Assembly: GCF_003704095.1 (NCBI RefSeq) | Contig: NW_020847516.1 | Location: 248,001-312,000 of the forward strand | Direction: 5' to 3' | Source of the DNA: Pocillopora damicornis | Lineage: Eukaryota | Length of the DNA: 64,000 nt | Shown here: positions 1,665 through 4,600 of the stretch, piece after piece | Layout of the letters: every line of letters begins with the position of its first letter | How positions within the stretch are numbered: the first letter of the stretch is position 1 | The notes under the pieces: generated by a model | Databases searched by the model: none | What the model saw: only the letters and a program-made list of their open reading frames with translations | What the model was told of the DNA's origin: nothing | Position numbers and translations under genes: made by a program

Positions 1665-4600
1665 ATGATGCTGAGGCTTTCGTTTCGGAGAATCAAATTA
1701 TTCCATAATGAATTTCCTCTTGAGAAGCAGCTCAATTTGACAAAGCGATGTCTTAGTGATCATGTCAGCGGTAATAATTCAGGACAAGAAATTCAGGTAA
1801 TTTTATTTATTTTTATTTATTGCAATTCTTGGCATATACAATGCAAAACTAAATAAAACTAAACTAAAATAATTATAAATGATAGATATTACAGCCAATG
1901 GATAATCCGTGAAGAATTCATAGACCCCATACAAAGACGGATCACCATAATAAAAAAAAATATATATATATAAAAACTATATAAAAAATAAGACTATGAA
2001 TAATTAGATGAATAGATGAAATACTCCTGAAAAACTGAGTCAGAATTTAAATGGAATGTAGATCTATGATGTAAAAATATCTATAGATTATCCAATAAAA
2101 GAGATATTTGAAGTATCTCTGTCTGACAAACATATGTAACATCCAGAAAACAGGACAGACAGAAATAATCAGATCAAAGTACTCATAACTCTAATAGAAA
2201 TTTCTTAGCTCTAGTCTTAAATATTTTTAACTCAGCAGTATTGCAAATTTCTCTAGGTAAAAGATTCCAACTATCATATATTCTATGGAAAAGGCTATAT
2301 TTTAAGACATTTGTTTTAGCATACTTCTTTTTTAAGGTTAAGTTATCTTTATGTCTTAATGAAAATTGGTCAATCTCTGAATAAAAATCTATGTAAGAAT
2401 GGACACTAATTTTAATATAGCCATTTAGGGCCATAAATAAAAAATTCACATCAGCCAGCAGCCTCCTTTTCTCTAGTATCATGAGGTTCAATGTCTTTAA
2501 ACAAGTCTCCAAAGGGTCATCAGTTTTTTAAAATAAATCTGGTTGCTCTCCTCTGTACTCTTTCCAGTTTTTCAATATTCTTTTTAGTGTGCTGTGACCA
2601 CAAGTAAGATGCAGGGAGTGAAATCGTGACGTGAGTTTCTTCCCCAATGAACTGGAGAAAGGATAGATTTGAAAAACCTGAATCTGCAGCAACTCTAAGC
2701 CAATATTGCGTGGTTACATATCGACTAAAAAAGTTGCAAAGGGCTTTTAATGTTCCTACCGCTCGCCAATATATTCTTGAATTAGTACATGTAATCTATA
2801 AGAAAAAGGCTTTCCTCCTGTACTTTTTTAGAGATTTGGTCTTCTGACTCGTCTTGCCCTACTCAAGCAAAACCATCGCATGTAAATGGCTACTAAAACG
2901 TTCCATCCTTTCCAGCTTGCACCATAAGTTGACTTGGACGCATCAGTGAAATAGTTTCACCCGTTTTCGGTTGTCACAAAATCTCAGGATTGAACAGAAT
3001 TGATCAAACTCGAGGGCAATTTCCAAGAAGTTGGAGAACAGAGGCTCTACGTTTGGCAGGTTGCAATAGTTGCAATAGTCGTTATGTGAGCTCTTAGCAA
3101 ATTGACCAAACGAATTATGTACAAGCGTTCTGTAGCCACTAAGCATGCGGTTAAGATTGAGTCGAGTATATTCGCTGTTCTGGCTTCAAACCATTCAGAC
3201 ATCCTCCAATGGCCTTGTCATTCTCAACTCCTTCATATGACTTCCTCGGTGAAATCAGTGACCACTTTTAATTAAATCCTCAACTCATTTGAAACTATTT
3301 TGTTCCACTCTGAACGAAGTCCTGCTCTCGGAGTGCCCTTGGACATATTTTAATAACTGCTGAGGTAATTAATATGTGTTGATATCTTAATTGGTATACT
3401 TGCCGTTAATTTTCATCCTGCATAATTTTTTTTGTCTCAGTTGTTTTCACATACTTTATGTCTATTTTGTTCGTCGAGCGTTTCTCGCTTATCCATAAGC
3501 ACCGGCTCAGGAGTCTGGGTTAAGTCTCCCTACGTTTCGACATTCGATAAAGTTGATAATTATCATTATTTGTTAAGCAAGTACTCTTCCTCCCCGGTTA
3601 AAAAAACTTCAGGTTCCTCACAAAGGAAGTTATCGTCTCGAAGACTGCGACAATAGAAGAGAATGGGTTGAACAAGTTACTTCCGCTTCTCTATCAAACG
3701 TTGGACAGTGGTGGAATCCTAAACTATCCCAGGGGTATACAACTGAAAATCTCAAAGGGAACATAGAAAATCCGATAGGACTCGCTAAGATTCCCCAAGG
3801 TATAGCTGGGCCCTTGCTCATCAAAGGAGATCATGTGCACAATGAAATGATTCTATGTCCTATCGCCACAACCGAAGGGGCGATCGTTGCCTCTACGTCA
3901 AGGGGTGCCAAGGCCATCACAAGGTAAGTTGTGTGACCAGCTACCCAGACATTTAACGGGAGTAAGGCTGAAGGTTACATCATAATACAAACCTTGCTAC
4001 TTTTCATTTGTATTTTTCGGTGTTATTACAGTAACTATCCTCTCGTGTCTATCTTAATGAGGTCGATCTCAGCCTCGCTATTGTTTATAAGTCTGACAAG
4101 CAAGCAGCAAAAGGAGTTTCAAATGCAACGAGGCAGGGTGAGGGGAGAAAATTTGCGACGTAGATCCTTTGTGGAGGAAACGCAACATTTGTAATTGCTT
4201 CCTGCTACAGAAATCGGGATGAGCTCTGCTAGGCAACTATGTAAATAATTCTCATACATTATCGCCCACAATGCCTATTTTACCAGAGGAAATTTCCGTT
4301 TACATTCTTCCCGATGTAAACCATCCATTACCTACCTATACTGAAGGCTGTCTTCGTACACCTATTCTGTTTACTTACAGGTGCGGCGGGGTCTCCACAC
4401 GTGTCATAAAGCGCAGGATCCAAAGAGTACCATATTTTGTGACAGATTCCATGCAACAAGCCCAGAAATTATCACATTGGCTTCTGTCTCATTTTGATGA
4501 ACTGAAAGCCAAAGCAGGGGAGGTCAGCCAACACTGCAAGCTTCAGTCTCTGCAGCCCTGGTTCATTGGTTGGTAGTACTATGACATTTTTTAATTTCAT

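Follow-up and report, generated by a model that had tools for sequence, protein, structure and literature searches.

A soluble HMG-CoA reductase (HMGR) of the mitochondrial matrix is described for trypanosomatids in the accessible text of PMC5993337, and it is the closest functional precedent for the location discussed below. Among animals, a second, prokaryote-like HMGR was reported from demosponges and Capsaspora by Conaco et al. 2016 (PMC4784904), who, in the available part of that paper, place it in class II and regard it as lost in other metazoans. For Pocillopora, the available part of PMC9181382 gives only mevalonate genes. We analyzed a stretch of 64,000 nucleotides from Pocillopora damicornis (the window), in which a first-pass annotation had pointed out a separate first exon resembling a mitochondrial presequence; a targeting exon, it proposed, had been added to a transferred HMGR gene and opened a possible mitochondrial route from HMG-CoA to mevalonate. 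The trypanosomatid enzyme is proven and feeds sterols from leucine, unlike the coral enzyme, which has an altered pocket and shares its genome with a canonical HMGR. Sponges are already known to have this family. The literature searched (most subscription journals not covered) contained no mention of it in corals or bilaterians, of the gene fission, of the exchange of PTS1 for a presequence or of the pocket change described below, nor any report of the targeting of a coral or bilaterian second HMGR or of a reductase-kinase fusion.

The exon at 1665-1796 is real. It comprises 44 codons, ends in phase 0 before a GT donor at 1797 and encodes MMLRLSFRRIKLFHNEFPLEKQLNLTKRCLSDHVSGNNSGQEIQ, in which Glu16, Glu20 and KRCLS (residues 27-31) lie as originally read. 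Contigs of all four RNA runs, from four studies, contain the GT..AG joint of 1796 to 3613 as well as the five joints 3' of it. It is the first coding exon but not the first exon, since non-coding exons lie 5' of the exon 1656-1796 (Table 1). The seven-exon model, with GT-AG introns throughout, gives a protein of 458 aa identical to P. damicornis XP_027058296.1 (P0122). A protein start further upstream is impossible because of an in-frame TGA immediately 5' of the ATG; the frames opened by three ATGs further upstream differ from the coding frame and end before the coding start is reached, and the true N-terminus is Met1 or Met2. PF00368 is matched by each of exons 2-7 and exon 1 is without any match. 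No joint that skips the exon and would yield a cytosolic isoform was seen in the four RNA runs, whose contigs show presence, not absence. Contamination was ruled out by the six spliced GT-AG coding introns, an aminopeptidase-like neighbor and orthologues in five coral genera. Gene models of Oculina and Porites that read through an intron resume at the same V/I-P-H, which suggests that the intron between extension and domain is common to corals. Sponge-like genomic calls pass this boundary unbroken, and the signal may therefore predate its separate exon. Coding variants within the extension were N15D in two of four RNA runs and N24K in one (window 1707 and 1736, respectively).

Table 1. Exons of the HMGR-like gene, in window positions.
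Feature	Coordinates	Strand	Evidence
5' non-coding exon, start not fixed (the examined stretch begins at 500)	500..592	+	joint 592->732, 1/4 RNA runs
5' non-coding exon	732..827	+	joint 827->1656, GT..AG, 2/4 RNA runs
5' UTR portion of first coding exon, in-frame TGA at its end	1656..1664	+	sequence
First coding exon, 44-aa N-terminal extension, predicted mitochondrial presequence	1665..1796	+	RNA joints, presequence scoring, AlphaFold pLDDT <50 for residues 1-40
Coding exon 2, start of HMGR domain, catalytic E132 (TTEG)	3613..3923	+	PF00368 E=2.8e-20; RNA joints
Coding exon 3, R163 (R590 equivalent), S197/Q198	4381..4568	+	PF00368, RNA joints, alignment
Coding exon 4, DAAGQN motif, cis-loop E261...D267 K268 N269	5042..5307	+	PF00368, RNA joints, alignment
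Coding exon 5, where the K735 equivalent is missing, V327 (H752 equivalent), N330, catalytic D342	5658..5868	+	PF00368, RNA joints, alignment
Coding exon 6, GTVGGGT motif	6034..6170	+	PF00368, RNA joints
Last coding exon, catalytic H449, RNRPE-stop end, no PTS1, no kinase domain	6460..6591	+	PF00368, RNA joints

The Pocillopora genome harbors two HMGR loci, the window gene and a complete canonical membrane-type HMGR (G000:C2045, about 703000-712400, + strand). The latter has an intact HMG pocket, the motifs DAMGMN, SGN..DKK, KNL and NAHAAN, and a weak sterol-sensing match in an upstream exon (E=6e-4, below cut-off). Neither an N-terminal sterol-sensing membrane domain nor a place in the clade of animal HMGRs, the marks of the canonical animal ER enzyme, was found for the window gene, which has no membrane domain and PF00368 as its only domain. 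Its product is class I-like by phmmer (6hr7, E=2.6e-67; class II chains, 3.8e-5 or worse), with a Foldseek match to 6hr7 at E=1.7e-39. The fold (TM 0.77/0.89) is shared with class I HMGR (EC 1.1.1.34; M. thermolithotrophicus 6hr7, human 1dqa, Arabidopsis 7uli), as are the TTEG Glu, the cis-loop DK, the GQD Asp, the C-terminal His and GTVGGGT. In contrast to class I enzymes, it lacks the membrane/sterol-sensing domain, reads DAAGQN in place of DAMGMN, has its HMG-carboxylate ligands replaced and carries a presequence-like N-terminal extension. Its score of 244.5 bits lies under the TIGR00533 equivalog cut-off of 441.8. An ESM Atlas search with the whole protein returned HMGR clusters only, and one with residues 1-45 gave no usable match.

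Relatives were found in stony corals (Stylophora, Desmophyllum, Oculina and Porites), sponges (Dysidea, Geodia, Ephydatia and Sycon), Owenia (three paralogues), Amphiura and two chytrids, followed by many bacteria. In a tree of 37 rows picked from a 63-row alignment (LG+G4, no mixture model; trypanosomatid HMGRs were left out of the trees), the 15 eukaryotic rows come together (92/95) within the bacterial family, and corals and sponges group together at 96/91. The gene is no duplicate of canonical HMGR, as grouping with the C2045 gene was rejected (p-AU 0.0021). Its proposed status as a transferred gene is supported: it nests among bacterial sequences, apart from canonical HMGR. A recent coral-specific transfer is not favored, the eukaryotic sequences being a single clade. 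Monophyly of the animal sequences was not rejected (p-AU 0.41), nor was it demonstrated; bilaterians join chytrids on long branches. With sponges, chytrids, an annelid and a brittle star in the clade, the gene appears to have come from bacteria long ago, and the simplest reading would be one old acquisition with patchy retention. The idea of a tag added to the transferred gene in corals finds no support in its original form: the clade holds chytrids and sponges, the transfer looks pre-animal, and presequence-like N-termini occur also in Owenia, Amphiura, Sycon (from Met33) and three sponge-like proteins. Judged by this sponge kinship, the coral gene very likely belongs to the same family as the HMGR of Conaco et al. 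2016. It differs from the account in the available part of that paper in being class I-like and present in stony corals, Owenia, Amphiura and chytrids; the kinase fusion and fission, the PTS1 and presequence and the altered pocket are additional here. One Owenia paralogue (P0482) has a presequence-like start and changed equivalents of R590, D653-N658, K691 and D767, and it is likely catalytically altered or dead. Sycon P0244 is without the C-terminal His.

We scored N-termini on the basis of the features given for cleavable presequences in the accessible text of PMC7723863 (a true N-terminus, 20-60 aa), together with a high Arg content, few acids, the potential for a positively charged amphiphilic helix and an R-2/R-3 processing motif. 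Our ad hoc rule, applied to residues 1-30, asked for a net charge of at least 3, at most two acids, at least two Arg, a moment of at least 0.45 and no hydrophobic core; it was set after the sequences had been viewed and had no positive-control set. The window extension, encoded by a spliced exon at the true N-terminus, has 7 K/R (4 R) and 2 acids per 30 aa, a maximum hydrophobic moment of 0.57 (corals 0.50-0.68; the threshold is our own) and a predicted presequence length of 29-30 aa. A signal peptide was ruled out, as there is no hydrophobic h-region (maximum hydropathy 0.43). AlphaFold pLDDT is 32-49 for residues 1-40 and at least 89 from residue 41. The presequence character recurs, by this rule, in corals and distant animals: 7/8 coral rows have it, with each of the 5 genera represented, as do all four bilaterian proteins (3/3 Owenia paralogues and Amphiura). 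The one coral miss is the D15 allele, common in Pocillopora (2/4 RNA runs), which has a third acid; other coral rows have 0-2 acids, four of them none. Sycon passes from an internal Met33, not from the annotated start. Passing rates were 3/10 among sponge-like gene calls and 0/7 among annotated fusion N-termini. The motif R-X-[LFYIM]-[STAYC] is found at 24-35 in 7/8 coral rows (R28-C-L-S in the window) and is missing from Stylophora (Q replaces R28), the four bilaterian proteins and Sycon. Within the first 44 residues, R28 alone is conserved at 90% (9/10 coral rows). The extension diverges fast, with 7/39 to 29/43 identical residues versus 164/225 to 206/225 in the domain; between Porites and the window, it is 7/39-10/40 identical and the domain about 73%.

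These numbers have to be read against null sets, in which 30/301 prokaryotic homologues, 39/267 random coral ATG-ORFs (15%) and 6/74 internal segments passed the rule; 9/267 of the random ORFs also had the R-3 motif, and 1/267 was as extreme on all four measures. By such counts the peptide alone is only moderately unusual, and its recurrence across orthologues is what exceeds chance. A single peptide proves little, because the rule is post hoc, there is no positive control and random peptides often function as presequences; according to the accessible text of PMC13684279, on Lemire 1989, a quarter of random peptides acted as targeting signals in yeast. From the recurrence in several lineages we consider import of the coral enzyme into mitochondria likely. 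MPP would then be predicted to cut after C29 (R28-C29|L30, R28 at -2), followed by an Icp55-type trim to S31.

Pocket positions were numbered via canonical coral HMGR. The equivalents of E559, R590, D690, K691, N755, D767 and H866 are kept in the window protein as E132, R163, D267, K268, N330, D342 and H449; of these, E132, K268, D342 and H449 are catalytic. The equivalent of R627, a ligand of the NADPH 2'-phosphate, is Q198 in corals and most sponges. The accessible text of PMC9500038 lists R590, S684, D690, K691, K692 and N755 as HMG pocket residues, H752 and L853 as contacts and K735 as forming a salt bridge to the terminal carboxylate of HMG. Four of these are replaced in the window protein (S684 by E261, K692 by N269, H752 by V327 and L853 by A436), and the K735 position is N310/A311, with no conserved Lys across the family and K or R at this site in two Oculina paralogues. 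The HMG-carboxylate pocket of S684, K692 and K735, with H752 as its wall, is not preserved. Canonical coral HMGR and an archaeal HMGR retain all these pocket residues. Similar replacements are found in bacteria, with E or D at S684 in 38/39 fusions scored (the motif filter let 42/80 through) and the H752 site occupied by N in 210/225 prokaryotic relatives. The alignment suggests that the substrate is probably not HMG-CoA.

The bacterial neighborhoods hint in the same direction. Among the best 80 of 711 bacterial loci (single-linkage clusters, one representative scanned for each), neighbors were PEP-dikinase (53), AMP-ligase/CDP-alcohol transferase (48), an unassigned 319-aa protein (46), MMPL (38) and DUF3419 (23). 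In the 1287 ORFs of these 80 loci we found no GHMP-kinase or HMG-CoA synthase motif and three IDI-2 motif matches, one of them likely real (L025). An ORF with what is presumably a DXR-like N-terminus lies directly upstream of one bacterial fusion (L044:5499-6653), hinting that its host uses the MEP pathway. Lost carboxylate ligands, together with bacterial relatives beside lipid and not mevalonate genes, make a mevalonate route doubtful.

Complete members from demosponges and chytrids, and many from bacteria, are HMGRs fused to a C-terminal EcKL/APH kinase. PTS1-like tripeptides end 7 of 9 eukaryotic fusion rows (AKL, SKL in three, SKM, AKL and ARL), three of the seven forming one Geodia-like clade; the other two rows appear to be truncated gene models. 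Such ends were seen in 0/87 prokaryotic fusions and in 0/11 HMGR-only animal proteins, which have extensions of 40-60 residues. For the coral enzyme a PTS1 was rejected, the C-terminal end being NRPE, and no PTS2 was seen by eye. The coral kinase half is a separate gene on a different contig (G000:C1700 53453-57653, - strand; L022:954-5154), spliced in 4/4 RNA runs, with alternative 5' non-coding exons (L022 6331 and 9121) and stand-alone orthologues in Oculina and Acropora. It encodes 454 aa with HYDFTPRN and YDWE intact. A presequence and a PTS1 are both lacking, which would place the two halves in different compartments and counts against the reading we prefer below. The split of coral reductase and kinase is a gene fission. 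Bacterial fusions resemble the coral proteins in sequence clade, pocket substitutions and the kinase motifs HxDxxPRN and YDWE; they differ in having no organelle signals and in joining what lies on two contigs in the coral. Our queries recovered none of three bacterial operon partners (PF01326, PF11899 and the 319-aa membrane neighbor) from the coral genome, the last two without positive control. Four sponge-like proteins (P0420, P0426, P0479 and P0015) have an in-frame presequence-like stretch upstream of the acidic start of other sponge proteins, and dual mitochondrial/peroxisomal targeting by alternative starts is possible there. A metagenome scan of sponge loci for upstream in-frame starts gave one weak locus.

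Overall, we give about even chances to a reading in which the exon is joined to a second, bacteria-derived HMGR-fold enzyme, serves as a cleavable presequence and directs the enzyme to the matrix, where an acyl-CoA that is not HMG-CoA would be its substrate and an alcohol its product. Import would proceed through TOM/TIM23, and two hydride transfers would take the CoA thioester to the alcohol. A 3-hydroxyacyl-type CoA substrate is suggested by the retention of the R590 and D690 equivalents, by the loss of the ligands for the distal carboxylate and by the acid at S684. With the 3-hydroxyl ligands retained and an acid at the distal site, candidates would be 3-hydroxyacyl-CoAs and cationic analogues of the carnitinyl-CoA kind, both of which, by our stereochemical reasoning, match (S)-HMG-CoA at C3; 3-hydroxyacyl-CoAs arise in peroxisomes and mitochondria, the two compartments indicated by the signals of the family. 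The product, a 1,3-diol or a hydroxy-amino alcohol, would be phosphorylated by the split-off, probably cytosolic kinase as a lipid head-group precursor. In terms of history, a reductase-kinase fusion may have entered before the animal-fungal split as a peroxisomal (PTS1) protein, the reductase half depending after fission on an N-terminal mitochondrial tag. More tentatively, and with the odds against it, opisthokonts including corals, annelids and echinoderms may keep an undescribed, bacteria-derived two-step pathway, in which an HMGR-fold thioester reductase and a choline-kinase-like enzyme convert a CoA ester of the beta-oxidation or carnitine type into a lipid head group, a phosphorylated diol or amino alcohol, and which moved from peroxisomes (PTS1 fusion) to mitochondria (split gene, presequence) during animal evolution.

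The mitochondrial HMG-CoA-to-mevalonate route of the first-pass annotation would require a true HMGR turning leucine-derived HMG-CoA into mevalonate in the matrix, as in trypanosomatids. It shares with our reading the class I fold, the four catalytic residues and the kept R590 and D690 equivalents, and has the trypanosomatid enzyme as precedent (PMC5993337, accessible text). We nonetheless judge it unlikely, given the replaced S684, K692, K735 and H752 equivalents, an H752 site that is mostly Asn in prokaryotic relatives, the TIGR00533 score below cut-off, a complete canonical HMGR in the same genome and bacterial relatives that sit in lipid-type operons, with no recurrent mevalonate-pathway motifs beside the best 80 of 711 loci apart from the one likely IDI-2. 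Class II HMGRs bind the carboxylate although they have no cis-loop; a pocket can thus be built in more than one way, which counts for a mitochondrial HMGR. Ketogenesis, invoked earlier as a source of HMG-CoA, fares poorly: the only HMG-CoA synthase locus detected starts without a presequence, leaving leucine as what would be the sole matrix source.

Two further explanations concern the leader and the direction of the reaction. The extension could be a neutral or decayed leader in Pocillopora, with the enzyme in the cytosol alongside its kinase partner. Two or three acids at residues 15-20, the passing rate among random coral ORFs, the ease with which random peptides target in yeast (PMC13684279, accessible text), which makes a presequence look cheap, and a kinase half without organelle signal all fit such a leader; it seems improbable to us, however, since Robusta and Complexa corals, at 18-25% identity, have retained the length, the charge bias and R28, and an annelid and an echinoderm show this bias too. 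Alternatively, a mitochondrial enzyme could run oxidatively, salvaging alcohols or diols from diet or symbionts into acyl-CoA for catabolism. The Gln at the R627 site in corals and most sponges would suit this, and degradative HMGRs exist (TIGR00532, a weak match); yet the ancestral fusion to an alcohol-type kinase and the acyl-CoA ligase neighbors fit a path from acid through thioester and alcohol to phosphate, and the class II match is far weaker than that to class I, making this the least probable of these readings, and a very unlikely one.

The coral and bilaterian copies contradict the sponge-only status of the second HMGR among animals, and the 'HMG-CoA reductase' labels of these genes in databases are probably wrong. 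The family offers a clean organelle-signal swap tied to gene fission, and a soluble animal enzyme pair would help to identify what a widespread but unstudied bacterial lipid operon makes. Were the mitochondrial mevalonate reading true, corals, which do not make sterols, would have a trypanosome-like shortcut from leucine to mevalonate bearing on their isoprenoid supply.

Elsewhere in the window, intron 1 contains decayed ORF fragments (2183-2795, - strand) that we take to resemble the 3' end of a LINE-type reverse transcriptase, and a similar fragment lies at 29702-30154. At about 1235-1273 and 6907-6970 lie short high-copy repeats, where the summed depth of RNA contigs is very high. Exons of an aminopeptidase N-like gene, recognized by eye, occupy 10043-20151 (- strand) and converge on the HMGR-like gene. 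Finally, an 854-aa open frame at 49262-51826 (- strand), Roc-COR-like by eye, has a P-loop (GDSRVGKTS) and a hydrophobic-stretch interruption.
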